A DNA stretch of 64,000 nucleotides. It comes from Candidatus Aenigmatarchaeota archaeon (lineage in GTDB: Archaea; Aenigmatarchaeota; Aenigmatarchaeia; QMZP01; QMZT01). A program made the position numbers and the translations under genes. The stretch covers positions 132,183-196,182 of the forward strand of contig JAFGCI010000001.1 in NCBI GenBank assembly GCA_016932735.1, in the 5' to 3' direction. The notes under the pieces are model-generated. The model was not told where the DNA came from. It was given only the letters and a program-made list of their open reading frames with translations, and did no database searches. Positions 470 to 58,723 of this stretch are shown piece after piece. Every line of letters starts with the position of its first letter. Positions within the stretch are counted from its first letter, which is position 1.

Positions 470-713
470 ATATAATCACCGACATAACAATTTAGAAAAT
501 GTCGTTGAAATATAGTGAACGACCGGATTCTAAAAAGTTATGCCATTCACTATAGAATATATTATGCCCGTTTAACTAATAAAAAATCAAATTTCACGGA
601 ATCTGCCCTTTATGTCTTTGATTATTTTCGAAAAAAGCTTTTATTGAATAATTAATAAATATAATCTATGCCAGCCATGCTCATGTCGTGGTTTTAGGCT
701 TTTTGGGTATATT

Positions 714-9700: not shown

Positions 9701-11168
9701 CCCAATGTGCGGATGCTCAGGCGTGAGCACTATGATAAGCAATTCAAAGCTTGTCCAGACAATCGACGGAAAGAGAGCGTCTTCTGAAATCTGCAATAAC
9801 ATTGACGATAATTGTGACGGCGGCATAGATGACGGCCTCGGAAAGTCATGCTATTGCACCGGCGGATACAACGGAACCGCGCTTGGAAGGCCCGAATTCT
9901 GCAATGCAGTTGATGACAATTGCAACGGGGTTATTGATGATATACCAAAGCCGTATGCATGTGCATGCTATAATGGCGCGCACGGGGCAGGGGAGCTCAC
10001 AGAAATATGCAACGGCATAGACGACGACTGCAACGGAATAGTCGATGAAGAATATCCGGAGAAGGGAGCTTTCTGTGGCGTAGGTATATGCACGGGGGGC
10101 ATGTACGAATGCTCCCAGGACAACCTGACGACAACCTGTTCCGGTAACAGGAGAGCGATTTCAGCCGCCCTCGAACATCCGTCATACTGCAACACATATG
10201 ACGACAACTGCAACATAGCGGTAGATGAAGGATGCGGCACGAACGCATCTGTGACTAACAGAAGCTGCGGCAGCGATATTGGTGAATGTTCTTCCGGCCT
10301 TCAGCTGCTGGTCGGGGGAAAATGGGGCCCATGTATGACAATAGGCCAGAACAGGCTCAAGGGGCCCGAAATAGAGGTTTGCGACAGCCTTGACAATGAC
10401 TGCGACGGTATAATAGACAACATAGGCGGAAAGACATCCACAGAAACAACAAGATGCGGTTGTTACGGAGGTGCCCAGCCTTCGACTGAAGAATGCAACG
10501 GCATCGACGACGACTGCGACGGGACTATTGACAACATCGGCGGAAAGACGTCTGTTGAATCCACTAAATGCGGCTGTTATGATGATGAATACGGAAGAGG
10601 AGCCAGCATTGAAAGATGCAACGGAATAGACGACGACTGCGACGGTATAGTCGATAATGTCAAGGAAGAAGAGTCTGTTGAAGCCACGAAGTGTGGATGC
10701 TACGGAGGACTTGTCCCGACGGCCGAAAGATGCAACGGCATTGATGACAACTGTGATGAGCGCATAGACGAGGATTTCGTTGAACTGGGAAAAGAATGCG
10801 GTATCGGTTACTGTTCAGGCGTATACATATGCAGCCAGGACGGTCTGCAGTCCGTGTGTAACGGCAACACTCCCACAACAGAAATATGCGATTCGATAGA
10901 CAACGACTGCGACGGCAAGATAGATGAGGGCTGTTACGGCAGTGAGCTAACGAGCTGCGAAAACGGAATCAGGGACGGTCGTGAAGAGGGCATAGACTGC
11001 GGCGGTCCATGTCCGGATGAATGCATGGGAACGCACGGACCTTCTGTCGATGACCTCAATACAAAGAAAGAAAACATAAAAAGCACATGGTTCACTATAT
11101 TCCTTGTAATGGTTGTTCTTATTATAGGCATAGGCATCGTCCTGCAATTCGGCCTGAAAACCAAGTAA
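714..11168 (+). CDS. Giant 3,484-aa secreted and anchored surface protein. It has an N-terminal signal peptide, Cys-rich modules, tandem Ig-like domains, a LamG/ConA-like lectin domain, about 27 MopE-like/TSP3-like Cys-Asp repeats of the form CNGIDDDCDGxIDE, and a C-terminal TM anchor.
   Basis: A single uninterrupted 10.4 kb ORF. The N-terminus is MAGDRFLYRKNILLLTTLVAFALSFAFMAQA, a signal-peptide-like segment. The C-terminus is WFTIFLVMVVLIIGIGIVLQFGLKTK, a TM helix followed by a basic tail. Repeats such as CNGIDDDCDGIVDE and CDSIDNDCDGKIDEGC recur about 27 times. A LamG motif region reads GTVEMWIKTSSSSGTLFHL...YAGLIDELRISKTKLSDGE. Ig-like segments read KPPTITILNESGSTINDNTATIKGTAYD...TYTVSATATDLGRNTNSVSITITV. 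Confidence 0.9.
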   Translation: MAGDRFLYRKNILLLTTLVAFALSFAFMAQAFDLEGAYFITAEQPKNSDGLGFFRIGTPLDADVNISFSYPIPLSPGEADLTAVVYKPTNIFTNMELPCSLNSQTGYYPVNVQHRYYVPQDVWYQYYRAGGRFNYQSSACINGLVHVFTEPFEMNTISLGDIIKAGDINGNQIVSGNPPTYDFKEYFFDFTLNLTYDNVSEEGIDFKYNYTRDIEKTEMSNTDDLEVALPTGDNKYHFEDYDNYVEYRNLLAPPKIVYHDTDDGDSNEVFDSEIYVYSETVKAVTFYVRGYNDDSTIDDKAAINIYQAGNPTALSSSGWKEHSPFYHSFTFLPGIEYRVQFRLKNRADHDNEHAHFEVQISSPSITNHNQIWSVINSGIFNVDINQEFWKITQRQGIFDANNNQRLDNYCSGPQDFYVKAATGIKSESCDGTDVVITATNQAGDSDDKVAHIANGGFLFFKQDDMNDTSYHFETVVRTGKALEIEFAVMVNYGVSVYVDGDLSKGFRIGCPSAEDCANQNYYTPSEKLNIPAGYHKIDIYLFCKDGQKCFLEMKAIEKNGNAPEIFFKDNFDEIGKPVDSNLEKNPIEANSGQAVTFSTEDGLVDVERKEPVYFESGLYKDLEPVKADNVDEADDRIQLSMRLACGEQIYQPCRDFGKWGACTTDNNGWIRNRILHENYADYELVEDDNGDYTIAKFTIEPFDHHSLDYTNNANAPNQPGQHNRTAYGGEYIGGIYECKMNWPNYETECPDPTYQYSFSGFECCYQKYTEADNKPTGPVWWSGISKDPDTGEQVGTIHIRDFKESTQTSGEAVIYIVNYLPYGGYTSKLDAEYMNFSMFDERPKLCAYVTKKVSLPHEYLITFNNTHTCNKVSATGDCCYCDPNSVCTLNCKNREDITDMYYATSLITANSLRASSFNLPFTTMGSGWYLENINVSVIVDSDTGSNVSVSVENTSATRWKTTAEMKEGSQRLLQEGNYTVSVNLHHDFGFNVSDDNPGTYYVNFTLDYINFSKRTYSDAEFDFGSNEMGNSSWEIYLNQYNQDDYPSSVRDQYVSYSPLKPQEIDVKKISFSGESGSIVDYGKRISFRAPPKNQYECETAAEFAAYCTTCSGTSTRGHWDGTKCVCSYPSESEKGICFEVDVQAGCNSNCCVCPESFNNPVIYWNRNVCQCTESRADNKPPTITILNESGSTINDNTATIKGTAYDLGGLADIRISIESTEQRQIATLNDLEEGEYEWEAELSFSYPATYTVSATATDLGRNTNSVSITITVSDTAFPPTITINAPEEGHEFFTTTTKVNLEISTNRDALCRYSTSDLGYDEMEPTQNFTEENPTTNFKAEVPVYSNQRYTYYFACTDGTKSHTSADNSQVSFDVLGVGGREPIDLECSEEIVDESTCTVDKCNCGPDGGIPIWNAHRGCICTKWDNVCRDVTDCKEDRNGGPNQYRYCDTEYNMCYDNEYTSSNLKLAGGTEPRNNINFTASECTVIGSETRFIYDWKSHPGTYDDFGACASDGTCPDGGICAFVNEIESRCILPRGGCSLGLQVCGPGYRWLYAESEEEPVYNKPETCNRIDDDCNGWIDDTVNFTTMFKISLELAGSGIGRSPQEITQCQCFNGLPPEEEVCDSIDNDCDGIIDNDVKYVLRNNCTEEVLTIIDIGNPPTGYSLYDFAYNKYYSDECTITNETIRETQNLTVNPCTDEVYECMQLGKYHTEIIYNNDTDEYEFPYRFEDCTTQLCLDGCIEHGYSSVPNDTAQLECETYFGSASECCYKMGYNTNPPIPDNALQNTYEYCAEKYYNPYTCIPLEEEMYYVPGELCNCEFTGTMYDSGGITQEYLDFIKKVDSNNESYCSSYTPFSTECCNGIDDNCDALLDNTEYPELCACYGIDNTTIRDETWTINDMNCTGRDENCDGTINENALFCNCTQTLNLPNATTIKEALISDESCNGIDDNCNNEYDEDFPVNTSCGGTNVSRCYGGVYVCNATGYNAVCNTTADISEINTDEGFFGTATGADLRIPEVCSGEDSDCNGTVDDTAHPELCNCYNYENLWEIQDIWENNTDDNCNGIDDNCNMRIDDESFSCACTNKTESEVVQIKTVNETCDGIDNNCNGFADETYSDIGKMCGFGACANGVMVCDVYGMRTVCNTTVDAADTYSGIAQSFISDEVCDLVGDEDCDGSIDEGCACTPQGIKKICGYASELVYNNRQHIDSICNEIRSQLRNMVSKSSSPGDMKYRRTIKIKNSNSYVVKDYPVRVDLSVIGSTKIRSDFGDVRVQDASGNELPWRRDGGSIVFKSSLLSAGNNKYTLYYGSPVRTYSEKSMTEIYGLERYQETFLMCDFNYNTQCNKGNMVPRASDVSVFSIGRYEAAMLFNSTNHTLRYASSANINLNRGTVEMWIKTSSSSGTLFHLPAAAGSIKLEINAGAASLARDSSVIASGGSVSDDQWHHIVVGWDNLIGMSLYVDGNKVGGSVVAWTPNNMGTDIFIGSEQGAANYYAGLIDELRISKTKLSDGEVKADARLLGGSISPSLANEEDMGSVGGGSGQLTDSELYYECLERLENAAGAPENSDNENSILSLCSSMITCNSDFSIDSASVCRVGVQSCSSSGWSDCSGNVVPQTEVCNRRDDDCNGLTDDFLYAQDTCACYNGNPPNGPEECNGVDDDCNAQVDDGFGGRCACSSGQRAQGDEPRICNGIDDNCNGIIDENVSNCACADATFAEINQRVGTERCNGIDDDCDGEIDEDFANVGNTCGGDQNSACYGGYYICKADGTGTVCSTTTDGVQLLGNLTSIDLRTDETCNGIDDDCDGERDENIPRCACADGAQNTGGYEPQVCNGIDDNCNGLIDEGVLKCPCADKTLEDVESFITPDLTCDDIDNDCNGIVDDQYPQLGEVCGGNPRSACYGGKYVCSIDEVSVVCNTMTPPENSFTGKTIDRRSEESCNGIDDDCNDVIDDLAGSNSNRYCACYNGMRLPGELVERCNGIDEDCDGVIDNNVPMCGCSGVSTMISNSKLVQTIDGKRASSEICNNIDDNCDGGIDDGLGKSCYCTGGYNGTALGRPEFCNAVDDNCNGVIDDIPKPYACACYNGAHGAGELTEICNGIDDDCNGIVDEEYPEKGAFCGVGICTGGMYECSQDNLTTTCSGNRRAISAALEHPSYCNTYDDNCNIAVDEGCGTNASVTNRSCGSDIGECSSGLQLLVGGKWGPCMTIGQNRLKGPEIEVCDSLDNDCDGIIDNIGGKTSTETTRCGCYGGAQPSTEECNGIDDDCDGTIDNIGGKTSVESTKCGCYDDEYGRGASIERCNGIDDDCDGIVDNVKEEESVEATKCGCYGGLVPTAERCNGIDDNCDERIDEDFVELGKECGIGYCSGVYICSQDGLQSVCNGNTPTTEICDSIDNDCDGKIDEGCYGSELTSCENGIRDGREEGIDCGGPCPDECMGTHGPSVDDLNTKKENIKSTWFTIFLVMVVLIIGIGIVLQFGLKTK
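5421..7270 (+). repeat. Block 1 of in-frame tandem Cys/Asp-rich repeats (about 9 copies, C-x-G/R-I-D-D/N-D-C-D/N-G) inside the giant CDS. The repeats are also visible at the DNA level, e.g. tgcaacggaatagacgacaactgcaa.
   Basis: Recurrent translated motifs: CNRIDDDCNG, CDSIDNDCDG, CNGIDDNCDA, CTGRDENCDG, CNGIDDNCNN, CSGEDSDCNG, CNGIDDNCN, CDGIDNNCNG, CDLVGDEDCDG. Confidence 0.8.
8580..10935 (+). repeat. Block 2 of tandem Cys/Asp-rich repeats (about 18 copies). Many copies are near-identical at the nucleotide level, e.g. tgcaacggaatagacgacgactgcgacgg.
   Basis: Motifs from CNRRDDDCNG, CNGVDDDCNA and CNGIDDNCNG through CDSIDNDCDGKIDEGC. The spacing between Cys pairs is regular, and an Asp/Glu-rich loop of the form DxDxDGxIDE resembles Ca-binding loops. 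Confidence 0.8.
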
Positions 11169-15739: not shown

Positions 15740-18700
15740 TTATTTCTTCTTCACCAGTTTCTTAAGCTTCATAAGAGGCCCGCCACCCTTGTGTACGGCA
15801 TAAACACTTGCCTGTCTCTCATATCCGGGCATGTACGGGCTCTTGAACTGCACGATTGTCTTCTGGCTCCCAAAAGCCTTTTGCCTGCCAATTCCCCGAC
15901 CTGATGATTTTATTTTTGGTATTTTGTCCTTTATGCTATTCAGCATATTCTTCCTTTTCGGACCAATCGCCCTGTAGCCGGACCTCATGCTGTAACTTCC
16001 GTGTTTCGGTGGCAGGAGAAGATACACTAGAATACCACCGACTATGACAACGATTACAATTCCCACTATCCAGAAAGTTGTATCTGTCAAGGCGAGTCCC
16101 AGTATCTGCTGCTTCTCATTCTGTAAATCGGAGAACTGGTTATCTATCTCGCCAAGCAGGGCGTCGACTTCTTTCAGAAGCTCGTTTGCCTCCAGATAAT
16201 ATCCGGCGGCCAGCTTGGTCTTTATGTCTTCCAGCATCCTTCCTATGGTTACAATCGACCTGTTGAGTTTGGTGTAATTATCAGAAGCCACACCCCCCAT
16301 ATTCACCGTGCTGAAGTCTGCCAGGAATTCGTTGAGCATTTTTACATAAGTATCATATGTTGTATTAATCAGGAGTTTTGTCTCTTCGTTTGGCTGTATT
16401 CTTATTGTGATGTTATATTCAACAGATGCAGCCGTCCTGTCCTTGTCGTAAGCAATGAAGGTTATATTCCCAGTCCCTATATCACTTGTCTCTGATATAT
16501 TGACATCAAGCGTTGAACTGTATGTCATGAATGGCTGGAGTATGTGGTAGACACCAGAAGGTATGGGGATATTGACGCCCCTGAGGATTGATGTTGCGTT
16601 TATCTTTACATTCGAGGTGACGTTGCCGATGTTTTTTATCTTGAATTCTATAGTACCGTTTTCGCCCTGTTTTATATCAAGAAATTCTGTTATCTCCATT
16701 ATTTTTAGTGCATAGTTGTATGTATCCAGAACACATTCGTGGTTTACTGCTGAGTATCCAGCAGCGCAAACCAGTTCCAGACACGTCCCGCCTACGCAAT
16801 GATAATTTGAAGAGCAATCGTCGTCCTCATCACATTCATCCGTTGTGGATGTATCGCCTGTCGTTCCCGTATTGTCAGTAGTCGTGCTTGAGCTGCTGTT
16901 GGTGACCGTTATTATTTCGTAATCAAGGTGTGTGGAGTTGTAGAATATCTGCTGGGCTGAAGCGTTTCCATAAGCATAAACCACCGACAGCCTGAAGTCG
17001 CCGAGTGCTGTCGCCTCAGCATCTAAAGCATTGTTTAAATCTGGTCCGCATTCCATGTTCTGCCATGTCGAGGAAGAGTTGGGCAATGTATTATTATAAT
17101 AGCAATAAAGATTTACAGTGGTCTCGACTTTATAGCTGGAACTGTTTGACTGGATAAATGCTGTCACATTTGATATGTCTTCCGTCCCGTCATTGAGAAC
17201 CTGCACATATATTGTGTCGGTATTTCCTGAAGGGTATGAAAGCGATGTATCGACCCCGTAAAAGGCGACCTGAAGCTGGGGAGCGATTATATTATAGACG
17301 TTAGTGTCATTCGCCCATCCTGAATAGTTGCCGCATCCGTATGTGGCTGAAATTTCTATCTTAGTCGAATGATTTCCGGATTCTGCGACCCTCCTCTCTG
17401 TTATAGCATAGTCTTTAAATTCAAAATTGTTTAGCGGTACTGTATAATTAATAATATATAAGCCGTTGCCACCCCCGCCAAAGTATGTGACATTCGCAGT
17501 CCTGTTCCAGTCGTCCCTTCCTGAATATGAATCGTATATTACAGTAATATTTGAAGTATCAAGGCCGGTAATGGCCGTCCCATTGGAAAGCTTAACGGAT
17601 ATGTTCAATGTTACTGTGTCTTCGGGGAGGACGGCTGAGCCGTATGTTATTACATCAATAAGAGTGACATTGAGGTCTGTGGAGATATATTCCACCCTTG
17701 TATTGTTTGAGCTGACCCCCAAAACCTCATCTCTTTCCATTGTCCAGTTGTCCCCATAGTCGGCGGTGGCATTTATGGATGTATTGCAGTTCCTGGCTAT
17801 CAGCCCTGTATAGTTTATATAAGCCTCTTCTCCAGGATTAAGAGACGCAATTGTGACAGAGGAATTTGTCGTCGTATAGTAAGAGAAACTGACATTAGTA
17901 ACGTTCGTAACCGGTGCCGTTCCTATATTTTTGACGATTACGGTTGCATTGAATTCCTGCCCTCCGTAAGGAGATCCGGGAGTTATTGTTATATCGTATA
18001 TGATAAGGTCTGACCTGTTCCCGACATACAGCGTCCTGTTAGACGATGCGAATGCTGTGTTATTTTCAGAGTCGTAGCACTGCACATTCCATATGTATGT
18101 TCCGTTATGGTTCGTGCTGTTGTTCATGCCGTCAACAGAGAATGTCGTAAGCGTGTTGTTTTCCATGGTGGAATTCGTCTGGTTTATATCCCATGCGCCA
18201 CCTGAAGAGTTCGTAAGCCAAAGGCTACAGTTTGCGAATCCGGAGAAGTCGGTAGCCGTGAAATTGAATGTTACTGCATTCCCGTCATCGTCCCACCAGC
18301 TATCCGAAGTGTTGAGGACTACGGAAGGCGCCGTATTGTCAATTACGATTGACTGGTTCTCCGCTGTCGAATTGCCGTTTCCTGCAAGGTCAATCATTGT
18401 TATGTTTATGTTATACCTGCCATCCGCGGGTACTGTCGAAAGCGATATGTTCTGGGTAGTCGTATTTGTTCCGGCTGTTATGTTAGATGTATTGGATGCA
18501 GAATAAACAGAATAGCCCGTTGCGTTCGTTATGTTGATTATGAATGAAGCGGGATTTGCTTCTGTATAGCTGAAATTCATTGTGAAGTTTATAGTTGAAT
18601 TTATAGTCTTAAGATAGGCCGGCGTCGAGTTCGTCGGCGAGTTAACCAAAAGCTGTGCGGGCGTGTTATCAATTACAAGCGATCCGTTCTCCCTTGTCGA

Positions 18701-19780
18701 GTTTGAATTTCCCGCCCTGTCATAAAGCGTTATCTCTATATCATAGTTCCCGTCGGCAAGAAGTCCGGGATAGTCCATTGATACGTTCTGAGCCTTTGAT
18801 AAAGATGAGCCTCCTGTTATAATGCTTGAATTTGTCACATTGTGAACACAGTCCCCCGTGCTGTTGGTTATGTTTATCCAGTACAAAGCCGGATATAGCT
18901 CCGTATAGGTGAAATCAATTGTGAAATTGATGTAATTGCTTACGTTCTTCTGATAGGTCGGTGTTGCGTTGAGCGGTGAAACCATCGCCAGAGACGGCGT
19001 TGTATTATCGATTGTGACCACCCTCGTTTCAGAGAACTCATCTGCAGTTCCGTCGTCGTCTGAATCGCATCCGATGAACCACGAATAAAGCGTGTTGGAA
19101 AGCGTGGAATTTGCTGTTATGTTTGTATTCGTTGCATTGCCCGCTGTCGTGTTTCCATATGGGGTTGTTACTGAGTCTACGAACAATGTGCAGTTGATCG
19201 TTGTGTTGTATTCCGACAGGAATGTGAAATTGAACTGCGGCTGAGTGTCATTGATGTAGCTCATGCTGGCAGGGTATGTAAGGTTTATGGAATCTATATA
19301 CGGGTCGAATGATATGTTCACCCAGTCAGTTCCATTAAACATCAATAGGGTAAAGTTCCATTTGCCGTAAAGCGGCTCTGTCATGTTTATTTCGACCATG
19401 AAGGGATATACGATATCATTTACAAATGGCAGGTTTTCTATGATGTTCGTGGTTATCTCCGTGCAAGGTATCTGGCTGCAGTTGTATATGGTGAAATTGA
19501 CATCAGTTGTTCCGAAGGTCGCGCTGTTGTTAAATGTTATATTGTATACCCCATTAAGCGTGGCATTATTGCTTGTCATATTGATATATGCAGTGCATCC
19601 CGGATAGCATGAGTACGAAGACTTATCCGAAACGAAAGTCACATTCCAGGGCATTGCCGTATAAGTAAAACCTACCGCAACGCTTGCCAAACCAAAAACC
19701 AAAAAACAAACAAAAACCAAAGTCGATATTGAAAAGTATCTCGAATTAACTATCCTATTCCCCACCATTATCCCACTCAT
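15740..19780 (-). CDS. Large 1,346-aa cell-surface glycoprotein, a candidate S-layer or envelope protein. It has an N-terminal signal or TM segment, a very high density of N-x-S/T sequons, a predicted secondary-structure-rich Cys pair, and a C-terminal TM anchor with a basic tail.
   Basis: N-terminus ...YFSISTLVFVCFLVFGLASVAVGFTY. There are more than 100 N-x-S/T sequons, e.g. NMTSNNATLNGVYNITFNNSATF. The C-terminus is LTDTTFWIVGIVIVVIVGGILVYLLLPPKHGSYSMRSGYRAIGPKRK. Confidence 0.8.
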   Translation of the reverse strand: MSGIMVGNRIVNSRYFSISTLVFVCFLVFGLASVAVGFTYTAMPWNVTFVSDKSSYSCYPGCTAYINMTSNNATLNGVYNITFNNSATFGTTDVNFTIYNCSQIPCTEITTNIIENLPFVNDIVYPFMVEINMTEPLYGKWNFTLLMFNGTDWVNISFDPYIDSINLTYPASMSYINDTQPQFNFTFLSEYNTTINCTLFVDSVTTPYGNTTAGNATNTNITANSTLSNTLYSWFIGCDSDDDGTADEFSETRVVTIDNTTPSLAMVSPLNATPTYQKNVSNYINFTIDFTYTELYPALYWINITNSTGDCVHNVTNSSIITGGSSLSKAQNVSMDYPGLLADGNYDIEITLYDRAGNSNSTRENGSLVIDNTPAQLLVNSPTNSTPAYLKTINSTINFTMNFSYTEANPASFIINITNATGYSVYSASNTSNITAGTNTTTQNISLSTVPADGRYNINITMIDLAGNGNSTAENQSIVIDNTAPSVVLNTSDSWWDDDGNAVTFNFTATDFSGFANCSLWLTNSSGGAWDINQTNSTMENNTLTTFSVDGMNNSTNHNGTYIWNVQCYDSENNTAFASSNRTLYVGNRSDLIIYDITITPGSPYGGQEFNATVIVKNIGTAPVTNVTNVSFSYYTTTNSSVTIASLNPGEEAYINYTGLIARNCNTSINATADYGDNWTMERDEVLGVSSNNTRVEYISTDLNVTLIDVITYGSAVLPEDTVTLNISVKLSNGTAITGLDTSNITVIYDSYSGRDDWNRTANVTYFGGGGNGLYIINYTVPLNNFEFKDYAITERRVAESGNHSTKIEISATYGCGNYSGWANDTNVYNIIAPQLQVAFYGVDTSLSYPSGNTDTIYVQVLNDGTEDISNVTAFIQSNSSSYKVETTVNLYCYYNNTLPNSSSTWQNMECGPDLNNALDAEATALGDFRLSVVYAYGNASAQQIFYNSTHLDYEIITVTNSSSSTTTDNTGTTGDTSTTDECDEDDDCSSNYHCVGGTCLELVCAAGYSAVNHECVLDTYNYALKIMEITEFLDIKQGENGTIEFKIKNIGNVTSNVKINATSILRGVNIPIPSGVYHILQPFMTYSSTLDVNISETSDIGTGNITFIAYDKDRTAASVEYNITIRIQPNEETKLLINTTYDTYVKMLNEFLADFSTVNMGGVASDNYTKLNRSIVTIGRMLEDIKTKLAAGYYLEANELLKEVDALLGEIDNQFSDLQNEKQQILGLALTDTTFWIVGIVIVVIVGGILVYLLLPPKHGSYSMRSGYRAIGPKRKNMLNSIKDKIPKIKSSGRGIGRQKAFGSQKTIVQFKSPYMPGYERQASVYAVHKGGGPLMKLKKLVKKK

Positions 19781-25007: not shown

Positions 25008-26024
25008 GTGAGTTATATGAAAACCATTAGAAAAGACCTTCGTGAAGGCGTCATAAAACTCAAGGTGGAAACGCCCAGCGATTTATGGCATCTGGAGAAG
25101 ATTGTGGAGCCCGGTGACCAGGCAAGAGCAGCCACAACGAGAAAGATCATAATCAACAGGGGCGGAGACCTAAAAACCGGCGAAAGGAAGAAAATGATTC
25201 TAACAGTCGAGGCCGAAAAGATGGAACTCACTGAAAGCGCTTTCAGGATTACCGGACCCATAAAGGCGGGTCCTGAAGACATTCAGCTCAATTCATATCA
25301 TACACTCCAGATTGAGATTGGAGACGAGATAGAGATAAAGAAAGTATGGAAGAAGCATCATCTTGACAGAATAAAGAAGGCTCAGGAGACCCAGCCTCTT
25401 GTCCTCATATGCATCCTTGACAGGGAAGATGCTGACATCGCAATGCTCAAGGAATCCGGGATAGAGAAACTCGGAAGGATAAAGTCGGGGGACCCTGAAG
25501 CGAGAGAAGAATATTATGCGGAAATAACTGCCTTTCTGGAAAAGGAGGAGGGATACAGCGCGCTCATTCTTGCAGGGCCCGGATTCGAGAGGGAGAATCT
25601 TCAGAAATACATGAAGGAGAAGAAGAGCCCGCTTGCGGGAAAGGCGCACCTTGTGCAGGCATCCTCGACCGGATTGTCAGGCATCAATGAAGTACTGAAG
25701 TCATCTGCGACAGCCATAATAAACAAGACGAGGATTGCAGAGGAATCTCAGTACGTCGAGAAACTGATGGAAGAGATAAAGAAGGAAGGACTCGCCGTTT
25801 ACGGACCCAAGGAAACAGAGGAAGCCGTCAATGCCGGAGCGGTCCAGACACTCCTTGTTTCAGAGAGCAAAATGAAAGATTACGAGATTCTTATGAGCAC
25901 TATTGAAAAGCTTCAGGGAAAGGTCATGATTATCGGGACAGACCATTCAATGGGAGAGCAGTTTCTTCATATGGGAGGAATCGGGGGATTCCTGAGATAC
26001 AAGCTGAAATATTATAGTGGGTGA
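25008..26024 (+). CDS. pelA: Protein Pelota (Dom34 homolog; mRNA surveillance and ribosome rescue).
   Basis: 338 aa, the typical Pelota length. It has an N-terminal Sm-like beta domain, a central domain, and an eRF1-domain-3-like C-terminus (LVSES...GGIGGFLRYKL). An alternative start MKTIRK lies at 25017. Confidence 0.8.
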   Translation: MSYMKTIRKDLREGVIKLKVETPSDLWHLEKIVEPGDQARAATTRKIIINRGGDLKTGERKKMILTVEAEKMELTESAFRITGPIKAGPEDIQLNSYHTLQIEIGDEIEIKKVWKKHHLDRIKKAQETQPLVLICILDREDADIAMLKESGIEKLGRIKSGDPEAREEYYAEITAFLEKEEGYSALILAGPGFERENLQKYMKEKKSPLAGKAHLVQASSTGLSGINEVLKSSATAIINKTRIAEESQYVEKLMEEIKKEGLAVYGPKETEEAVNAGAVQTLLVSESKMKDYEILMSTIEKLQGKVMIIGTDHSMGEQFLHMGGIGGFLRYKLKYYSG

Positions 26025-27224: not shown

Positions 27225-27473
27225 ATGATACCGGTCCATAGGCTTCTCCTTAAATTCCTGGGTGACAGGCAGACAGATAAAAGCGAGTTCGAGATAGTCG
27301 TTGCAGATCCTGCCGGACGGCTGTCATACTATAATCTGGAAGACGTCATGGTGGATGAAAGCAATCCGGAGACATTCACATTCATCGATGAGGATGACAG
27401 CTTCATTAAGATATCGTATTCGGATGTCAGGAAAGTATTAAGGAACGAGAAGCCGGTCTGGGAGAAAGGGTAA
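27225..27473 (+). CDS. Hypothetical small protein.
   Basis: 82 aa ORF with an acidic C-terminal half. No motif recognised. Confidence 0.3.
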   Translation: MIPVHRLLLKFLGDRQTDKSEFEIVVADPAGRLSYYNLEDVMVDESNPETFTFIDEDDSFIKISYSDVRKVLRNEKPVWEKG

Positions 27474-27477
27474 ATAT

Positions 27478-27771
27478 CTACAAAGGTTTACCTTTATACC
27501 TGTCGTCAATGTCTCCATGTTTTCCCATTGTAACTTTCATTGCATCTCTTGCTAAAAGAGTTGTTGTTCTAAAGAAGAACCTGCTTACAGGCTTCATTTC
27601 AGACTCTATTTCTCTGATGTTATTCAATTGTTTTCTGGCAGCCTCGAAAACAGTCTTCTTGCCATATTTTACATCAAGATTCATATGATATAGAGCTGCT
27701 CCTGCCTGTAAAATATTTCCTGCGCCAACATAAATTCCTGCCAGTATGCCGGCAATTCCTAACGGGTGCAT
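27478..27771 (-). CDS. Hypothetical small membrane protein.
   Basis: 97 aa. The N-terminus MHPLGIAGILAGIYVGAGNILQAGAALY is a glycine-zipper-like hydrophobic helix. Confidence 0.35.
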   Translation of the reverse strand: MHPLGIAGILAGIYVGAGNILQAGAALYHMNLDVKYGKKTVFEAARKQLNNIREIESEMKPVSRFFFRTTTLLARDAMKVTMGKHGDIDDRYKGKPL

Positions 27772-28191: not shown

Positions 28192-28464
28192 ATGGGAAGA
28201 GAACATAAATACATTGTGACCTTCAGGCAGACAAGAGAAATGTATCTGCCGTCTTTCTGCCATCTGGTAAGAGAAGGAGCAACGCAATCCGGCTACATAT
28301 TTGAGGGATTCTCCGGATTCGTGCCAGACCCATCCAAAGGAATATTTGAATTTTATGTCTCAGGTAAAGCGAGGCCGGAAAATAACAAACGACTTAAAGG
28401 AAATCTGGCGATTTATGGAGTAATAGAGAAATCTGAAAAAATCCAAAACCCCTTGAAAGAATAA
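28192..28464 (+). CDS. Hypothetical small protein.
   Basis: 90 aa ORF. No motif recognised. Confidence 0.3.
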   Translation: MGREHKYIVTFRQTREMYLPSFCHLVREGATQSGYIFEGFSGFVPDPSKGIFEFYVSGKARPENNKRLKGNLAIYGVIEKSEKIQNPLKE

Positions 28465-28514: not shown

Positions 28515-29447
28515 ATGAAGAGCGTCAACACAGGAATATTCCATGATTCGTCAGGAGAGCTTCTGTCGCTTCTTGGAAAGAAAGGCACGATGACAGATAT
28601 CCAGTTCTCAAACCGAAAAGAAGGGGATGTCTTCTATGCCTTCCTTGAGCCGAGGGAAGACAAGCTCTCGGCCAAGTGCCAGATTATACAAACAATGGAC
28701 ATCGCGGTACTCTGCATAGACCAGATAACATCCGAAGTGGGCGAAACAATACTGCTTCTTGATGCGATGAAAAAGAATCTCGGTATAATGATTCTTTCAG
28801 ATGTGGTCGATAAAGAAATGCTTTCCAAAGTTACAAAGGGCACTGTGGTTTCCGGCTATAAAGAGGTCGGAAGGGACTTCAACCAGATAATAGAAGCCAT
28901 AAACTCTTTTGAAATCAAGAGGAATGACAGCCTGAAAAAAGTCGTCGAGGTGGACCAGTTCTTCAATGTAAAAGGCGTTGGGACGGTAATCCTTGGTTTT
29001 GTCAAACAGGGAACCATCAACAAGTTCGACAAGCTGAAGATGCTTCCTCAGGGAAAAGAGATTGTCGTGCGTTCCATCCAGATGCACGATAAGGACTTCG
29101 ACTCAGCAAACGACGGATGCAGAGTTGGCCTAGCCCTTAAGGGCGTCGAAGCTGAAGAGTTCACTAAAGGAACACTACTTTGCGAAGACGGAACCGCTGA
29201 ACTCGTAACGGAAGTTCAGATAGAATTCAAAAAGAACAAGTTCTTTTCTGGAGCAGCCGAAGCGGGAAAAGTCTTTCATGTATCCCATGGAATGCAGTTT
29301 CCGCCACTTAGTATAAAATCGATTGATGGAAACAAACTTGTCTTAGAATCAAAAAACAAGATGGCAATACGAAAGAATCAAAGAGTCGTTCTGATAGACT
29401 TGAATGCTCCTAAATTACATTTGGTCGGGAGCGGAAAAATACTATAA
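28515..29447 (+). CDS. EF-Tu/EF1A-family paralog with a degenerate (probably GTPase-dead) G domain and intact beta-barrel domains II and III.
   Basis: Domain II, VDQFFNVKGVGTVILGFVKQGTINKFDKLKMLPQGKEIVVRSIQMHDKDF...GCRVGLALKGVEAEEFTKGTLL, aligns to EF-Tu domain 2 ([21 protein letters not shown]...). The C-terminal ...LHLVGSGKIL resembles the domain III end. The N-terminal region (GIFHDSSGELLSLLGKKGT, LDAMKK, SDVVDKEM) lacks canonical G1 GxxxxGKS/T, G3 DxxG and G4 NKxD motifs. Confidence 0.7.
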   Translation: MKSVNTGIFHDSSGELLSLLGKKGTMTDIQFSNRKEGDVFYAFLEPREDKLSAKCQIIQTMDIAVLCIDQITSEVGETILLLDAMKKNLGIMILSDVVDKEMLSKVTKGTVVSGYKEVGRDFNQIIEAINSFEIKRNDSLKKVVEVDQFFNVKGVGTVILGFVKQGTINKFDKLKMLPQGKEIVVRSIQMHDKDFDSANDGCRVGLALKGVEAEEFTKGTLLCEDGTAELVTEVQIEFKKNKFFSGAAEAGKVFHVSHGMQFPPLSIKSIDGNKLVLESKNKMAIRKNQRVVLIDLNAPKLHLVGSGKIL

Positions 29448-29660
29448 CTTCTTCCATACCATCGATTTCTTTTCGGGAGAGAACCTTCCTTCGACCTTCT
29501 TCTCCCCGCGAAGCTTGATGAGAGCGAAATTAACCTTGTCCATGCATTCGGAGCGGCTGCCTTCCTTTCTGAGAGTGTCCTCAATTTCTGTCGTTGTCTT
29601 CTCTCCCTCATCGAGCAGCCTCATGATTATTATCTCGATGTCCTCTTTGCTTAAAGTCAT
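29442..29660 (-). CDS. Small putative winged-helix DNA-binding protein.
   Basis: 72 aa. The pattern LSKEDIEIIIMRLLDEGEKTTTEIEDTL...VNFALIKL resembles a wHTH (ArsR/TrmB-like) fold. It is convergent with the upstream gene and overlaps it by 6 nt. Confidence 0.35.
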   Translation of the reverse strand: MTLSKEDIEIIIMRLLDEGEKTTTEIEDTLRKEGSRSECMDKVNFALIKLRGEKKVEGRFSPEKKSMVWKKL

Positions 29661-29845: not shown

Positions 29846-31660
29846 ATGTTTAATAAACACAAGAAAATAGTACCGGATACATCCGTTCTCATAACAAGGA
29901 AATTATCGGAGCTTGTTTCTGAAGGAAAATTATCCGATGTAAAGATCATAATTCCAAGGTTCGTGATGGATGAGCTTCAGGCTCAGGCATCGCGCAGCCG
30001 CGACACCGGATTTCAGGGTCTTGCAGAAGTGAAGGCACTAAGAGACCTTCCCAGAAAATACAAGATAGAAGTCACGATTGACGGAAGGCTTCCGACGGCT
30101 GAAGAAATAAATTTAGCCAAGAAAGGAAGGCTGGATTCGCTGATAAAGGAATTCGCCGGAAAAGAGAAAGCGCTTCTTATCACAAGCGATTACGTACAGG
30201 CGATTGTCGGCGAAGCGGAAGGCGTCGCCGTCCAGCATTACCCAAGCGCACATCCGCAGATTGTCGGTATCGAGAAGTTCTTTGATGAGAACACACAGTC
30301 GGTTCATCTGAAAACCGGCGTAATCCCTGTAGCAAAGAAAGGGAAGCCGGGATCAGTAAAGCTTGCAAAACTTTCCGATAAGCCCATTACAGAAAAGGAA
30401 ATAAAAAAGATTGTCGATGACATAATGTCCAAGCAGAGGAAGGAAGAAGATTCGTTTGTCGAGATGAATCGTGGCGGAGCTTCCGTTATCCAGCTCGGCG
30501 ACTACAGGATTACAATTACGAAGCCGCCTTTCTCGGACGCGCTGGAAATGACGGCTGTAAGGCCGATAGCAAAGAAGTCGATTGATGACTACAAGCTGAA
30601 AAAAGAAATTATTGACAGGATTACCGGGACATCCCAGGGAGTCCTCATTTCGGGAGCTCCGGGAAGCGGGAAGTCGACCTTCGCTGCAGCTGTCGCTAAC
30701 ATGCTTTCCGGAATGGAAAAGATTGTAAAAACATTTGAACAGCCAAGAGACCTTCAGGTCGTCCCGGAGATAACGCAGTACGCGCCTCTTCTCGGAAGCT
30801 GGGAGAAGACTTCGGAGATACTTCTTCTGGCAAGGCCGGACTACACTGTCTTCGATGAAGTCAGGACGACTGATGATTTCCGTGTCTTTGCTGACATGCG
30901 CCTTGCAGGCGTCGGAATGATAGGAGTCGTCCATTCGACAGACCCAGTATCTGCCATACAGAGATTCGTCGGAAGGATTGAGCTTGGAATGATTCCGCAC
31001 GTAATGAACACAGTCATTTTCATAGAAGCGGGACATGTGAAAAAGATTTACGATGTCTCGCTATCTGTCAGAGTCCCGACAGGGATGAAGGACGACGACC
31101 TTTCAAGGCCGGTCGTTGATATCAAGGACTTCGACACGGGAAAACTTGAATACGAGATATACACGTTCGGGGAAGAAAATGTAGTTATCCCGATTAAAGA
31201 TGCAAAGAAAACAGCGGGGGAAAGCCCGCTGAAAAAACTTGCAGCTGAAACCCTCTACAGGAAACTTTCAAACATAGATAGGAACATGAAAGTCGAGGTC
31301 TTAAGCGATAACAGGATTCTGATAAAGGTCAGAAACGATCTCATTGCAAAGATAATAGGAAAGAAGGGCGCCAATATCGAGAAGCTTGAGCAGGAGATAG
31401 GCTTTAACATATCCGTTGAACCCATTGAGGAAACGATGAAAAAGGAAGCAAAGTTTCAGGCCTTCGAGAAGGGAGCAAGCTATTATATCGACCTAGGACA
31501 CGAATCCGGAGGGCGTTTCGTGGACGTCTACGACGGAAAGAGCCTGATCTTCTCTGTTGAAGTCGGGAAGAGGGGAATGATTAAGGTCAAGAAGAAGTCC
31601 GAGATAGGAAGAAAGATTCTAAGCGCAATGGCTTCTGACAGGATGAAGGTTTATTACTGA
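29846..31660 (+). CDS. PIN-domain / PilT-type ATPase / KH-domain protein (conserved archaeal COG1855-like).
   Basis: N-terminal PIN (VPDTSVLI...D). Walker A is ISGAPGSGKSTFAAAVAN and Walker B is YTVFDEVRT. The C-terminal KH reads KIIGKKGANIEKLEQEIGFNISVEP. Confidence 0.8.
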   Translation: MFNKHKKIVPDTSVLITRKLSELVSEGKLSDVKIIIPRFVMDELQAQASRSRDTGFQGLAEVKALRDLPRKYKIEVTIDGRLPTAEEINLAKKGRLDSLIKEFAGKEKALLITSDYVQAIVGEAEGVAVQHYPSAHPQIVGIEKFFDENTQSVHLKTGVIPVAKKGKPGSVKLAKLSDKPITEKEIKKIVDDIMSKQRKEEDSFVEMNRGGASVIQLGDYRITITKPPFSDALEMTAVRPIAKKSIDDYKLKKEIIDRITGTSQGVLISGAPGSGKSTFAAAVANMLSGMEKIVKTFEQPRDLQVVPEITQYAPLLGSWEKTSEILLLARPDYTVFDEVRTTDDFRVFADMRLAGVGMIGVVHSTDPVSAIQRFVGRIELGMIPHVMNTVIFIEAGHVKKIYDVSLSVRVPTGMKDDDLSRPVVDIKDFDTGKLEYEIYTFGEENVVIPIKDAKKTAGESPLKKLAAETLYRKLSNIDRNMKVEVLSDNRILIKVRNDLIAKIIGKKGANIEKLEQEIGFNISVEPIEETMKKEAKFQAFEKGASYYIDLGHESGGRFVDVYDGKSLIFSVEVGKRGMIKVKKKSEIGRKILSAMASDRMKVYY

Positions 31661-41321: not shown

Positions 41322-42212
41322 ATGCAAGTCTCAGTATTCGATTTGAAAGGCGCAGAGAAGGGGAAGATTGAAGTCCCGAAGAAACTGTTAGCCCCGAAAA
41401 GGAAGGACATTGTTAAGAAAGCTTTCCTTGCTGAGAAGAGCGAGACACGACAGCCCTACGGGACCGACCCGGAGGCTGGACAGAGGTCATCCGCTTATTA
41501 TCATGGAAGAAGATCCAAAAGGAACAGCATGATGAACAGGGAAATGGCAAGAATGCCGAGAGTCATTAATATGGGCTTTCTGAACTTCAGGGCAAGAAAT
41601 GTGCCTCAGGCCGTAAAGGGCAGAAAAGCACATCCGCCCAAGGCCGAAAAGGTATGGACGCTCAAGATCAACAAGAAAGAATGGACATCCGCCCTTTATT
41701 CTGCCATGTCATTTACTTTTGATAAAAATGCTGTTTCTCTTCGTGGTCATGATGTTTCTTCATTGAAAAGCTATCCTCTTGTTCTTGATGATTCATTCCA
41801 GGAAATGAAAAAGACAAAGGAAGTTGTTGATGTCCTTAATGTTCTCGGCTTCGAAAAAGAATTGGAAAGATGCTCTGAGAAAAAAATAAGAGCGACAAAG
41901 GGCAAGATGAGGGGAAGGAAATACAAGGAGAAGAAAGGCCCTCTTATAATTGTTAATGAAGATAAAGGCATTGGAAATGCCAGCAAGAACATTCCGGGCG
42001 TCGATTTCAGGATGGCAGGAAAGCTTGATGTGATGTCCCTTGCTCCGGGAGCTCATCCTGGCAGGCTTGTAATATGGACGAAATCAGCTCTTGAGAGCTT
42101 TAATAAGACAAAAGAAGACAAGAAAGAGAAAGCAGTAAAAGTAAAAAAAGCAGTTTCTCCAAAGGCGGATGCTCCTAAAAAGAAGACGTCTGCTAAGGAG
42201 AAAGCTAAGTGA
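41322..42212 (+). CDS. rpl4: 50S ribosomal protein L4 (uL4) with a Lys-rich C-terminal tail.
   Basis: The N-terminus MQVSVFDLKGAEKGKIEVP... resembles archaeal L4 (MKVNVYSLDGKEVGEIELP). The C-terminal tail is KTKEDKKEKAVKVKKAVSPKADAPKKKTSAKEKAK. There is no L3 gene upstream. Confidence 0.8.
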   Translation: MQVSVFDLKGAEKGKIEVPKKLLAPKRKDIVKKAFLAEKSETRQPYGTDPEAGQRSSAYYHGRRSKRNSMMNREMARMPRVINMGFLNFRARNVPQAVKGRKAHPPKAEKVWTLKINKKEWTSALYSAMSFTFDKNAVSLRGHDVSSLKSYPLVLDDSFQEMKKTKEVVDVLNVLGFEKELERCSEKKIRATKGKMRGRKYKEKKGPLIIVNEDKGIGNASKNIPGVDFRMAGKLDVMSLAPGAHPGRLVIWTKSALESFNKTKEDKKEKAVKVKKAVSPKADAPKKKTSAKEKAK

Positions 42213-50730: not shown

Positions 50731-50769
50731 GCCCTTTTCATATTTTCAATTGACTTAGGTGATTTTTAG

Positions 50770-58722: not shown

Positions 58723-58723
58723 T

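Follow-up and report, generated by a model that had tools for sequence, protein, structure and literature searches.

A divergent archaeal SelB-like protein whose GTPase domain lacks the nucleotide-binding motifs: family placement, selection and gene context in an Aenigmatarchaeota genome

The window, a 64,000-nucleotide stretch of a Candidatus Aenigmatarchaeota contig, contains an unbroken open reading frame (ORF) exactly where a sequence-only reading had placed it. The reading frame begins with ATG and encodes a protein of 310 amino acids, which almost certainly belongs to the divergent clade of aSelBL (archaeal SelB-like proteins), a lineage within the EF-Tu superfamily. The gene, its three domains and the upstream features discussed below are as follows.

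25008 to 26024, forward strand: Pelota (TIGR00111, 226 bits against a cutoff of 177.65), given as context only
28192 to 28464, forward strand: small gene of 90 amino acids, of no known family, with an orthologue directly upstream in locus L084
28484 to 28490, forward strand: TTAAAAA, an A/T-rich run at -31 to -25 from the ATG that, as read from the sequence, may be an archaeal TATA element
28515 to 29447, forward strand: complete gene assigned to divergent aSelBL (ATG, 310 amino acids plus stop, no internal stops)
28515 to 28919, forward strand: N-terminal domain, approximately residues 1-135, a G-domain fold without G1 to G5 (beta1 2-9, short alpha1 16-20, last helix 122-130)
28920 to 29198, forward strand: domain II beta-barrel, approximately residues 136-228 (Pfam GTP_EFTU_D2 at 156-223, E 3.7e-11)
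29199 to 29444, forward strand: domain III, approximately residues 229-310, with a 13-residue deletion relative to MM1309; the protein ends here

A single-sequence phmmer search of the PDB returned MM1309 of Methanosarcina mazei (3wnb) as the best match (E 7.8e-31), and the same structure ranked first when a family profile was used (E 3.5e-49). These similarities are far above chance, with E-values reaching 4e-180 among family members. Across the phmmer and profile searches of the PDB, NCBIfam and Foldseek, MM1309 is followed by aSelB, then by eEFSec and bacterial SelB, then by aIF2-gamma, and only then by EF-Tu and EF1A. The protein had been proposed as an EF-Tu/EF1A-family paralogue; membership of the EF-Tu superfamily holds, as do the intact domains II and III and the loss of nucleotide-binding motifs from the G domain (from the Pfam domain II match, motif search and alignment), but the lineage is that of SelB. 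The NCBIfam models follow the same order, selB above EF-1alpha and EF-Tu, with all scores far below the cutoffs: 71.8 bits against 242.25 for TIGR00475 (SelB), covering only residues 113-297, and 40-56 bits against 449-540 for EF-1alpha and EF-Tu.

The placement within aSelBL rests on this ranking and on indels shared with proteins of Methanospirillum, Methanothrix and Nitrososphaerota, used in place of a tree. Relative to MM1309, deletions of 3-5 amino acids in the P-loop, 9 after G4 and 7+10 around G5 are common to the window protein and to those of Methanospirillum, Methanothrix, Nitrososphaerota, Thermoplasmata and Bathyarchaeia. These fit the 'divergent aSelBL' of Atkinson, Hauryliuk and Tenson, who described the disrupted GTPase domain of this clade in 2011 (PMC3037878), and hence count towards this identity. 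The published deletion of approximately 15 amino acids after the P-loop, around alpha1, is also present, spanning 18 alignment columns relative to aSelB in the window protein, 15 in MM1309 and 20 in most relatives. The published divergent-clade deletions are 4-5 amino acids in the P-loop and 10-14 after G4, relative to conservative aSelBL (PMC3037878); in the window clade they are 3 (5 in most relatives) and 9. The positions are the same and the sizes slightly smaller. The window protein further resembles the published divergent members in its three domains without a SelB extension, its KGTxx and E/DPxxx motifs, its conserved domains II and III and its pocket Asp and Arg; it differs in the shorter P-loop deletion (HDSSGELLSLL as opposed to HDxxLGxEL) and in carrying Gln in place of the pocket His.

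Two other assignments were rejected. SelB proper is excluded by the score below the TIGR00475 cutoff, the lack of functional G domain motifs and the end of the protein at domain III, without the SECIS-related C-terminal extension of SelB. The automatic JGI name given to relatives, 'selenocysteine-specific translation elongation factor', is therefore an over-annotation. Canonical aEF1A or EF-Tu is excluded by the absence of G1, G3, G4 and G5 motifs in their places and of a Pfam GTP_EFTU match, and by the low NCBIfam scores. No canonical aEF1A was found within the 64-kb window, where the sole translational-GTPase signature is that of aEF2 (50770-52983), and an exact-sequence look-up of the window protein did not find an identical record.

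The fate of the canonical motifs was followed by aligning the protein with M. maripaludis aSelB and MM1309, both as verified sequences:

28533 to 28559, forward strand: P-loop remnant G7-I-F-H-D-S-S-G-E15, of which only H10-D11 align with aSelB GHIDHGKT
28575 to 28598, forward strand: switch I/G2 equivalent G21-K-K-G-T-M-T-D28 (family motif LGKKGTxSD), aligned with aSelB QKRGITID
28647 to 28664, forward strand: switch II/G3 remnant E45-P-R-E-D-K50, relative to aSelB DAPGH with Asp replaced by Glu, no Gly or catalytic His and a 2-residue deletion
28794 to 28811, forward strand: former G4 site L94-S-D-V-V-D99, without N/TKxD; the next nine residues of MM1309 have no counterpart
G1: aSelB GHIDHGKT; MM1309 GTEKSGRT; window protein H10-D11 only, with GK[ST] deleted
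G2: aSelB RGITI; MM1309 KGTSS; window protein K23-G-T-M-T27
G3: aSelB DAPGH; MM1309 DAHSY; window protein E45-P-R-E48, with the Gly and catalytic His absent
G4: aSelB TKSD; MM1309 TRSD; window protein L94-S-D-V, no equivalent
G5: aSelB SAK; MM1309 SAK; window protein, inside a 21-column deletion

Pfam GTP_EFTU does not match the N-terminal domain even at E 0.1, nor any of the 120 homologues listed. Regular-expression searches over the 310 residues found no GxxxxGK[ST], no relaxed GxxxxG[KR][ST] and no PGH. The only DxxG (D11-S-S-G14) lies within the P-loop remnant, the only [NT]KxD (N169-K-F-D172) in the domain II barrel and the only SA[KL] (S52-A-K54) in the helix after switch II, each away from the position of G3, G4 or G5 respectively. 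The absence of G1, G3 and G4 that had been noted from the sequence is therefore borne out both by motif search and by alignment, and the strings said to replace them, "GIFHDSSGELLSLLGKKGT", "LDAMKK" and "SDVVDKEM", are all present; the loss of G5, inside the 21-column deletion, had been overlooked. By alignment, the window protein has lost every canonical nucleotide-binding element. What remains at switches I and II (K23-G-T-M-T and E45-P-R-E-D) fits the published aSelBL consensus of KGTxx at G2 and 'E/DPxxx', without the catalytic His, at G3 (PMC3037878). The pseudo-GTPase of the window is thus not a new kind of protein. It had been called unusual, which is fair among translation GTPases generally, but the exact property is the published hallmark of aSelBL (PMC3037878; PMC4342817).

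The description of this domain as degenerate likewise stands only in part: the GTPase motifs are gone, but the domain has a near-invariant motif set of its own and is under purifying selection. The family comprises 1378 homologues of uniform length (approximately 306-310 amino acids), and relatives occur in no fewer than 587 archaeal reference species. Conservation reaches 90% or more in 31 of the 135 columns of the N-terminal domain, where the mean frequency of the top residue is 0.65, compared with 0.73 in domain II and 0.61 in domain III. The same threshold is reached by G7, F9, H10 and D11 of the P-loop remnant, while G21, K22, K23, G24, T25 and D28 of switch I are invariant or at least 90% conserved. 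Compared with the 81%-identical relative at locus L083, the N-terminal domain has a dN/dS of approximately 0.10, and pN is far below pS in each of the three domains. The motif-less N-terminal domain is selectively maintained, not decaying.

Divergent aSelBL has been reported from Thermoplasmata, DPANN (ARMAN), Methanomicrobiales and Thaumarchaeota, with no conservation of gene context (PMC3037878). The window protein falls in a subgroup with GIFHD and EPxEDKLSAK motifs, found in Thermoplasmata, Bathyarchaeia, Aenigmarchaeota and Micrarchaeota, which lacks two further switch II residues relative to the subgroup of Methanomicrobiales, Methanothrix and Nitrososphaerota. A metagenome scan for close relatives added ten loci, mostly short. 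The aSelBL proteins form the only translational-GTPase subfamily added by archaea after their common ancestor with eukaryotes (PMC4342817), and a search of the available literature library found no functional work on them after 2015. The present finding mainly confirms that the 'pseudo-GTPase EF-Tu paralogue' is aSelBL. The family itself is a real problem for study, given its persistence in hundreds of lineages, including those with tiny DPANN-type genomes; to this the window adds one sequence from a poorly sampled lineage, quantitative evidence of selection on the N-terminal domain and a negative result on linkage to Pelota.

The AlphaFold2 model of the protein is compact and confident across all 310 residues (pLDDT 96.1, pTM 0.93). 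Foldseek gave MM1309 (3wnb) as the top fold match (TMq 0.90), and the model resembles GTP-form EF-Tu (1exm, TMq 0.80) much more than GDP-form EF-Tu structures (0.48-0.51). As modelled, therefore, the protein is in a closed, GTP-like arrangement of its domains. Together with the Foldseek matches and the alignment, the prediction bears out an EF-Tu-type three-domain fold from which the nucleotide-binding residues have been lost. MM1309, also known as 'EF-Pyl' or aEF-X, is a conservative aSelBL and the closest solved structure (3wnb, 3wnc, 3wnd and 2elf; PMC4329189), with 29% identity; it shares the closed three-domain form, the LGKKGT switch I, the GE[CT]I helix and the pocket Asp and Arg. By contrast, it keeps a working P-loop (GTEKSGRT), TRSD and SAK, all absent from the window protein, which is 40 residues shorter. 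PMC4329189 describes the apo, GDP and GMPPNP forms of MM1309 as closed and near-identical, with switches I and II serving as domain contacts. The second-best match, M. maripaludis aSelB (4ac9; profile E 2.3e-27, TMq 0.83), has the homologous pocket (D191, H192 and R247), but also the intact G1 to G5 motifs and C-terminal extension that the window protein lacks.

Domain II is the best-conserved part of the protein, with 33 of 93 columns at least 90% conserved. It contains the counterparts of the residues of aSelB to which roles in an aminoacyl-binding pocket have been ascribed (Asp191, His192 and Arg247; PMC3037878):

28953 to 28958, forward strand: pocket pair D147-Q148, equivalent to aSelB Asp191-His192
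29121 to 29123, forward strand: R203, equivalent to Arg247 of the aSelB aminoacyl-binding pocket, invariant in the family

D147 is likewise invariant, so the Asp and Arg of the triad are kept, while His is replaced by Gln148. Family-wide, this His is 93% conserved; Gln occurs at this position in the window protein and in relatives P0001, P0002, P0045 and P0075, and some long-branch aSelBL members have also been reported to be without the pocket His (PMC3037878). This substitution in the window lineage implies that cargo specificity may differ. F31 lies at the position of a proposed hydrophobic lid.

As an explanation of the family and its mechanism together, a nucleotide-independent, permanently 'on' aminoacyl-tRNA binder is favoured, with a probability of roughly 60%. 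The former G domain would be kept under selection as a structural wall that locks all three domains permanently into a closed, 'GTP-like' conformation; this would form the cleft in which factors of the EF-Tu type grip a tRNA by its acceptor stem and its aminoacylated CCA end, and constitutive aminoacyl-tRNA binding without a GTP/GDP switch would be the most likely consequence of such a closed cleft. The cargo might plausibly be Cys-tRNACys or a tRNA charged with another small residue, by analogy with MM1309, which shields Cys-tRNACys from deacylation (half-life 300 min as opposed to 80 min; PMC4329189). Binding would protect the labile ester and side chain, or pass the tRNA to another partner. 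The parts of the mechanism that go beyond family membership (that it binds tRNA, that it does so without a nucleotide, and which cargo it carries) are put at a little under even odds. Several observations weigh against them. MM1309 is the only relative to have been characterised, and it still binds GTP (Kd 0.43 uM; PMC4329189); Cys-tRNACys binding was reported for its GTP-bound form, and it is a leap to extend these data to a protein that has no P-loop. The closed state is that of a predicted model, and the strongly conserved residues F9-H10-D11, KKGT and GET might belong to a site for a ligand or for catalysis that this explanation leaves out.

A closely related possibility, although unlikely, is that the protein would act as a GTP-independent alternative elongation factor, delivering one particular aminoacyl-tRNA to the A site of the ribosome and letting it go without hydrolysis. 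According to Atkinson et al., aSelBL conserves the domain II patches through which EF-Tu touches 16S rRNA, and the same authors mention non-enzymatic delivery as an option (PMC3037878); Yanagisawa et al. proposed such a role under the name 'aEF-X'; the strong conservation of domain II in the present protein is in agreement with this. However, no means is known of coupling codon recognition to release when both the switch II His and a nucleotide switch are lacking, and the chemistry activated by the sarcin-ricin loop in all translational GTPases is absent. A role in tRNA metabolism outside translation, chaperoning a tRNA (charged or not) or presenting it to an enzyme of tRNA modification, repair or tRNA-dependent biosynthesis, was left open by Atkinson et al. 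(PMC3037878) and is also regarded as a minor possibility. The neighbours vary, but some are RNA-related: a weak match to the MJ1316 cyclic-phosphate-end-recognition domain (E 2.6e-4, below cutoff); in the window, HisRS 5.7 kb upstream; in locus L082, CysRS; and in other lineages MetRS, AlaRS and RNase P/Z (PMC3037878). Against this, the retained aminoacyl pocket argues for a charged tRNA, and unbiased clustering of neighbours at 84 loci revealed no conserved partner gene beyond lineage-specific synteny. The second-largest cluster in that analysis is an artefact of antisense ORFs within the aSelBL gene itself.

It is distinctly unlikely that the remodelled N-terminal domain still binds a nucleotide or other small ligand in a non-canonical manner, leaving the protein a switch. 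Strongly conserved polar residues do occur at the old nucleotide site (H10, D11, K22, K23, T25, D28, E45 and K50), MM1309 binds GTP with Arg in place of the P-loop Lys, and Atkinson et al. mention a possible unknown mechanism of hydrolysis (PMC3037878); but the phosphate-binding loop is shortened, the G5 loop and nine residues after G4 are deleted and no invariant Asp occupies the guanine-specificity position. Less probable again is either of two further proposals: that the conserved residues of this domain (F9-H10-D11, K22-K23-G24-T25-x-x-D28, P46 and K50) would form a new functional site, for another ligand or for aminoacyl-tRNA chemistry, or that the protein would be a GTP-independent carrier feeding aminoacyl-tRNA to ribosome-rescue or quality-control factors. 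Were the carrier proposal true, meaning would attach to the loose but recurrent occurrence of Pelota nearby, and of NFACT together with Pelota in one lineage of Thermoplasmata.

The sequence-only reading had gone further, suggesting from the nearby Pelota gene a regulatory or decoy role in the delivery of tRNA-like cargo or in no-go decay. On this view the protein would be a partner of, or decoy for, Pelota or aRF1 in ribosome rescue, in the place usually taken by aEF1A. The proximity is real, the Pelota gene ending 2,490 bases before the ORF on the same strand, and the upstream, same-strand position recurs in L083, where the stretch from Pelota through aSelBL consists of six genes in one direction. 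Seven Thermoplasmata-type loci carry an NFACT-Pelota pair downstream, the start of NFACT being 1.4 to 4.2 kb, and that of Pelota 3.4 to 5.4 kb, past the end of the gene; Pelota is one of only three neighbour clusters recurring in three labelled taxonomic groups; and the model resembles the aEF1A of the aEF1A-Pelota complex (3wxm, TMq 0.80-0.82). Nevertheless, the sampling of synteny (80 reference-genome loci and three contigs of close relatives, giving 83 comparison loci, plus the ten metagenome loci) makes this role very improbable. Pelota lies within 10 kb of the aSelBL gene at only 9 of the 83 comparison loci, always with at least three genes between them. The arrangements, on opposite sides of the gene, represent about two independent events, as L065, where Pelota is downstream without NFACT, has a second neighbour in common with the Thermoplasmata loci. 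A predicted opposite-strand gene is among those lying between Pelota and aSelBL in the window and in L028, the one Thermoplasmata locus examined for intervening genes. The unrelated NAD kinase and ABC ATPase recur about as often as Pelota, and hundreds of species have aSelBL without linkage to Pelota. Nor is a position near Pelota conserved among orthologues in the clade of the window protein: the 91%-identical one is flanked by two IS1595 transposases, with no Pelota, and the 56%-identical one has a divergently transcribed CysRS upstream. The aEF1A of 3wxm is a true GTPase that shares 16-17% identity with the window protein, and the likeness of the model to it, reflecting the superfamily fold, is no better than to aIF2-gamma or EF-Tu. 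The nearness of Pelota thus looks incidental, with which the promoter-like element that the gene may have to itself (see below) weakly agrees. The same sampling provides no consistent backing for a link to cysteine, as CysRS adjoins aSelBL at only one of 93 loci (L082).

That the gene is a frameshifted or decaying copy of aEF1A or aSelB, or an assembly artefact, for which only the missing motifs count, can be virtually discounted given the unbroken ORF, the like length of the 1378 homologues, pN far below pS, the confident full-length model and an upstream ORF that is not G-domain-like. That ORF lies in another frame.

The small 90-amino acid gene upstream has an 86%-identical counterpart in L084, in the same position and separated from aSelBL by the same 50-bp gap, and is absent from L083; no homologue of the upstream 138-amino acid gene in L082, or of the small upstream ORFs in L083, was found. 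Scans of the 64-kb window for tRNA genes and Rfam families gave no matches. In the 50-bp gap before the ATG no Shine-Dalgarno-like sequence was found, and the TTAAAAA element weakly suggests that the aSelBL gene may have an A/T-rich promoter-like element of its own and possibly a leaderless transcript.

The open reading frame at 28515..29447 (+), read from sequence alone as a paralogue of EF-Tu/EF1A, is present at exactly these coordinates as 310 uninterrupted codons starting with ATG; a pseudogene or frameshifted copy was excluded. The only Pfam domain in its product (the window protein) is EF-Tu domain 2 (residues 156-223, E 3.7e-11), and no GTP_EFTU domain was detected by Pfam even at a permissive threshold. 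NCBIfam matches are partial and fall far below threshold; selB comes first (71.8 bits, cutoff 242), then EF-1alpha, then EF-Tu. Among solved structures, the top match by sequence is MM1309 of Methanosarcina mazei, a protein formerly put forward as 'EF-Pyl' (PDB 3wnb; E 7.8e-31, or 3.5e-49 with the family profile), in an alignment spanning the N-terminal domain and domains II and III. The runner-up is the aSelB of M. maripaludis (4ac9), while EF1A and EF-Tu matches are confined to domain II. The same order emerged from a Foldseek search with a very confident AlphaFold2 model (pLDDT 96.1, pTM 0.93) that drew on 121 family sequences.

Foldseek TMq of the modelled window protein against solved structures
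3wnb (MM1309): 0.90
aSelB: 0.83
eEFSec and bacterial SelB: 0.82
aIF2-gamma: about 0.82
GTP-form EF-Tu (1exm): 0.80
GDP-form EF-Tu structures: 0.48-0.51

MM1309 and then aSelB lead both rankings, and the protein is of the SelB lineage, not that of EF1A/EF-Tu; the earlier reading was right at the level of the EF-Tu-superfamily fold, and not in the lineage to which it assigned the protein. The scores, with GTP-form EF-Tu at 0.80 and GDP forms at 0.48-0.51, imply a full three-domain fold, which the model shows in the closed, 'GTP-like' conformation.

This makes the window protein a normal member of aSelBL. The pseudo-GTPase character of this family has been on record since 2011, when Atkinson, Hauryliuk and Tenson defined it as an ancient paralogue of aSelB lacking the SelB C-terminal extension and found in methanogens, Thermoplasmatales, Sulfolobales, Thaumarchaeota and the ARMAN nano-archaea (PMC3037878). 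They separated a 'conservative' clade (Methanosarcinales, Methanocellales and ARMAN-4/5) from a 'divergent' one, in which 4-5 aa of the P-loop and a later stretch of 10-14 aa are deleted. They describe conserved G2 (KGTxx) and G3 (E/DPxxx, lacking the catalytic His) motifs and a retained aminoacyl pocket (Asp191, His192 and Arg247 in aSelB numbering; PMC3037878). A later review lists aSelBL as the single translational-GTPase subfamily added in archaea, with unknown function and a G domain 'disrupted to varying degrees' (PMC4342817). No functional work later than the MM1309 structure of Yanagisawa et al. in 2015 (PMC4329189) was found in the literature searched.

Relatives are numerous: 1378 proteins match at E <= 1e-3, and among the GTDB species representatives that were scanned, at least 587 encode one. 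Of the 120 best matches, nearly all have a length of 300-329 aa, and Pfam GTP_EFTU was found in none. The best identity in reference genomes is 46%; the nearest named relative (56%) comes from a MAG labelled Candidatus Micrarchaeota, in which the neighbouring ATPase is 78% identical to that of the window. The source of the window is probably an uncultured archaeon of the DPANN type. Four comparison loci (L026, L031, L036 and L049) lie in MAGs labelled bacterial (Desulfobacteria, Methylomirabilota, Acidiferrales and Sulfurovum), and are most likely mis-binned archaeal contigs. Many family members bear the automatic JGI name 'selenocysteine-specific translation elongation factor'; as these proteins score far below the selB cutoff and lack both the G motifs and the C-terminal extension, this label is a propagated over-annotation.

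The verified MM1309 and aSelB sequences, taken from the PDB search, were aligned with the window protein and seven relatives of named taxa.

GTPase motifs in aSelB, MM1309 and the window protein
G1: aSelB GHIDHGKT; MM1309 GTEKSGRT; window protein retains H10-D11, the GK[ST] portion being deleted
G2: aSelB RGITI; MM1309 KGTSS; window protein K23-G-T-M-T27
G3: aSelB DAPGH; MM1309 DAHSY; window protein E45-P-R-E48
G4: aSelB TKSD; MM1309 TRSD; window protein L94-S-D-V, followed by a 9-aa deletion
G5: SAK in aSelB and MM1309; window protein, within a 21-column deletion

The absence of GTPase motifs is thus confirmed by alignment and motif search, and extends to G5. G3 has a 2-aa deletion and neither the glycine nor the catalytic histidine; a plain motif search detected no P-loop, and the sole DxxG (11-14), NKxD (169-172, in domain II) and SAK (52-54) strings are misplaced. 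The GIFHD motif is the visible stump of GIFGHIDHGKT in aSelB. These deletions are those of the divergent clade, and are common to proteins of Methanospirillum, Methanothrix, Nitrososphaerota, Thermoplasmata, Bathyarchaeia, Aenigmarchaeota and the Micrarchaeota-labelled MAG, although in the small clade of the window protein the P-loop deletion is 3 aa rather than 5 aa. All G motifs have been lost from a family member that retains the fold and keeps the pocket Asp and Arg. The pocket His, present in 93% of the family, is Gln148 in the window protein. Gln also stands there in its two nearest relatives (90% and 81% identity) and in two further aligned members, P0045 and P0075.

The N-domain has been remodelled and is not in decay. 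Of its 135 columns in the 121-sequence alignment, 31 are at least 90% conserved, including G7, F9, H10, D11, L20-G-K-K-G-T25, D28, N33, K35, F43, P46, K50, K54, D62, G76-E-T78, D83 and G90, and its mean conservation (0.65) lies between those of domain II (0.73) and domain III (0.61). For the N-domain, comparison with the 81%-identical orthologue gave a pN of 0.11 and a pS of 0.60 (dN/dS about 0.10); pN is well under pS throughout the remaining comparisons, but dS is saturated in these. Purifying selection acts on all three domains.

MM1309 was shown still to bind GTP (Kd 0.43 uM), by a P-loop in which Arg replaces Lys, and to be closed and near-identical across its apo, GDP and GMPPNP forms; it shields Cys-tRNACys from deacylation (PMC4329189). 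By analogy with MM1309 and EF-Tu-type logic, the closed arrangement of domains I-III would form a cleft for the aminoacylated acceptor end, with the N-domain as its fixed wall, and in lacking a nucleotide switch the protein would bind aminoacyl-tRNA constitutively. Like MM1309, the window protein could carry Cys-tRNACys, but the His-to-Gln change and the lack of any consistent cysteine-related context (CysRS adjoins aSelBL in one of 93 loci) make this tentative. [quoted passage not shown]

A fourth alternative, put forward in the sequence-only reading, is that the protein partners Pelota, perhaps as a regulator or decoy in no-go decay. The Pelota gene, 2.5 kb upstream, is genuine.

Features flanking the aSelBL gene
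25008..26024, Pelota (TIGR00111; 226 bits, cutoff 178)
27225-27473 (+), MJ1316-like 82-aa protein (weak, sub-threshold full-length match, E 2.6e-4; 22 bits, cutoff 26.3)
27478-27771, predicted opposite-strand ORF separating the Pelota block from the aSelBL gene
29442-29660 (-), 72-aa gene overlapping the aSelBL stop codon by 6 bases
29846-31660 (+), PIN-ATPase-KH protein (NCBIfam PRK13764, 748 bits)

The window's 14 neighbour proteins were compared with 80 reference-genome loci (flanks of up to 10 kb per side), three close-relative contigs and ten metagenome loci. Pelota is no more than 10 kb from aSelBL in 9 of 83 loci (10 of 84 with the window included): L083, seven Thermoplasmata-type loci and L065. 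L065 has a second neighbour in common with the Thermoplasmata loci, and there are therefore about two independent arrangements. Pelota is upstream of aSelBL in the window, whereas in the Thermoplasmata loci it comes after an NFACT-family gene, its start 3.4-5.4 kb downstream of the aSelBL end, with two predicted opposite-strand genes intervening at L028, the sole such locus where these were examined. Unrelated genes recur comparably (NAD kinase in two groups, an ABC ATPase in three), and no family-wide conserved neighbour emerged from the comparison, in agreement with the mostly unconserved gene context reported in 2011 (PMC3037878).

Within the window's own clade, the downstream order is stable (a 71-72 aa opposite-strand gene, a PINA-type ATPase, then NAD kinase), the first two being the steadiest neighbours (L081, L082 and L083). 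By contrast, the upstream side varies.

Surroundings of aSelBL in close relatives (identity to the window protein)
L083 (81%), upstream: Pelota, YjeF_N, 138-aa gene, MJ1316-like gene
L081 (64%), upstream: 138-aa gene directly adjoining
L082 (56%), upstream: CysRS (tRNA-synt_1e and DALR_2), 86-1525 (-), divergent, 0.7 kb away
L084 (91%): 90-aa gene and aSelBL between IS1595/ISXO2-type transposase genes, 146-889 (+) and 2312-3100 (-)

With nine of 83 loci, about two arrangements and an unstable upstream side, a functional tie to Pelota is not borne out; the proximity is most likely incidental, although there may be a loose association.

The arrangement in L084 suggests that its two-gene segment has moved or been rearranged recently. 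The CysRS of L082, a MAG labelled Micrarchaeota, is intriguing for the Cys-tRNA hypothesis, yet occurs there alone. The seven Thermoplasmata-type loci (L005, L012, L017, L028, L046, L048 and L053) carry an adjacent pair of NFACT/Rqc2-like and Pelota genes (e.g. 7487-10542 in L017); the NFACT-like gene encodes about 650 aa, its N-terminal resemblance to ribosome quality-control factors being assigned by eye, and starts 1.4-4.2 kb downstream of the aSelBL end. The PIN-ATPase-KH protein also resembles PINA, a Holliday-junction branch-migration ATPase. MJ1316 domains recognise RNA 2',3'-cyclic-phosphate ends, and the 82-aa protein is kept in L083 (61% identity). The 50-bp gap before the aSelBL ATG contains no Shine-Dalgarno sequence, and TTAAAAA occurs at -31 to -25, a pattern that would fit, if weakly, a leaderless mRNA made from a promoter of the gene's own.

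Scans of all 64 kb of the window detected neither a tRNA gene nor an Rfam family at the gathering threshold, although it contains translation-factor genes and a ribosomal-protein cluster (L4 at 41322-42212). aEF1A follows aEF2 in many archaea; here the gene after aEF2 encodes another protein, and no EF1A signature was found in the 64-kb window.

Other features of the window
50128-52983 (+), ribosomal protein S7, then aEF2
53034-53612, next after aEF2, 192-aa protein without a Pfam family, not aEF1A
714-11168 (+), giant ORF of 3484 aa combining a laminin-G/concanavalin-like domain with numerous putative metal-binding repeats of the MopE-like kind (PF11617, E 1.2e-60)
15740-19780 (-), 1346-aa ORF with CARDB and bacterial Ig-like domains
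57148-59956 (+), GCS2-type glutamate-cysteine-ligase-like gene adjoining a circularly permuted ATP-grasp/glutathionylspermidine-synthase-like gene

The 3484-aa product resembles the very large secreted or surface proteins often seen in small-celled archaea, and the 1346-aa product is probably another cell-surface protein. The two genes at 57148-59956 may form a small peptide-ligase or thiol-metabolism cassette.
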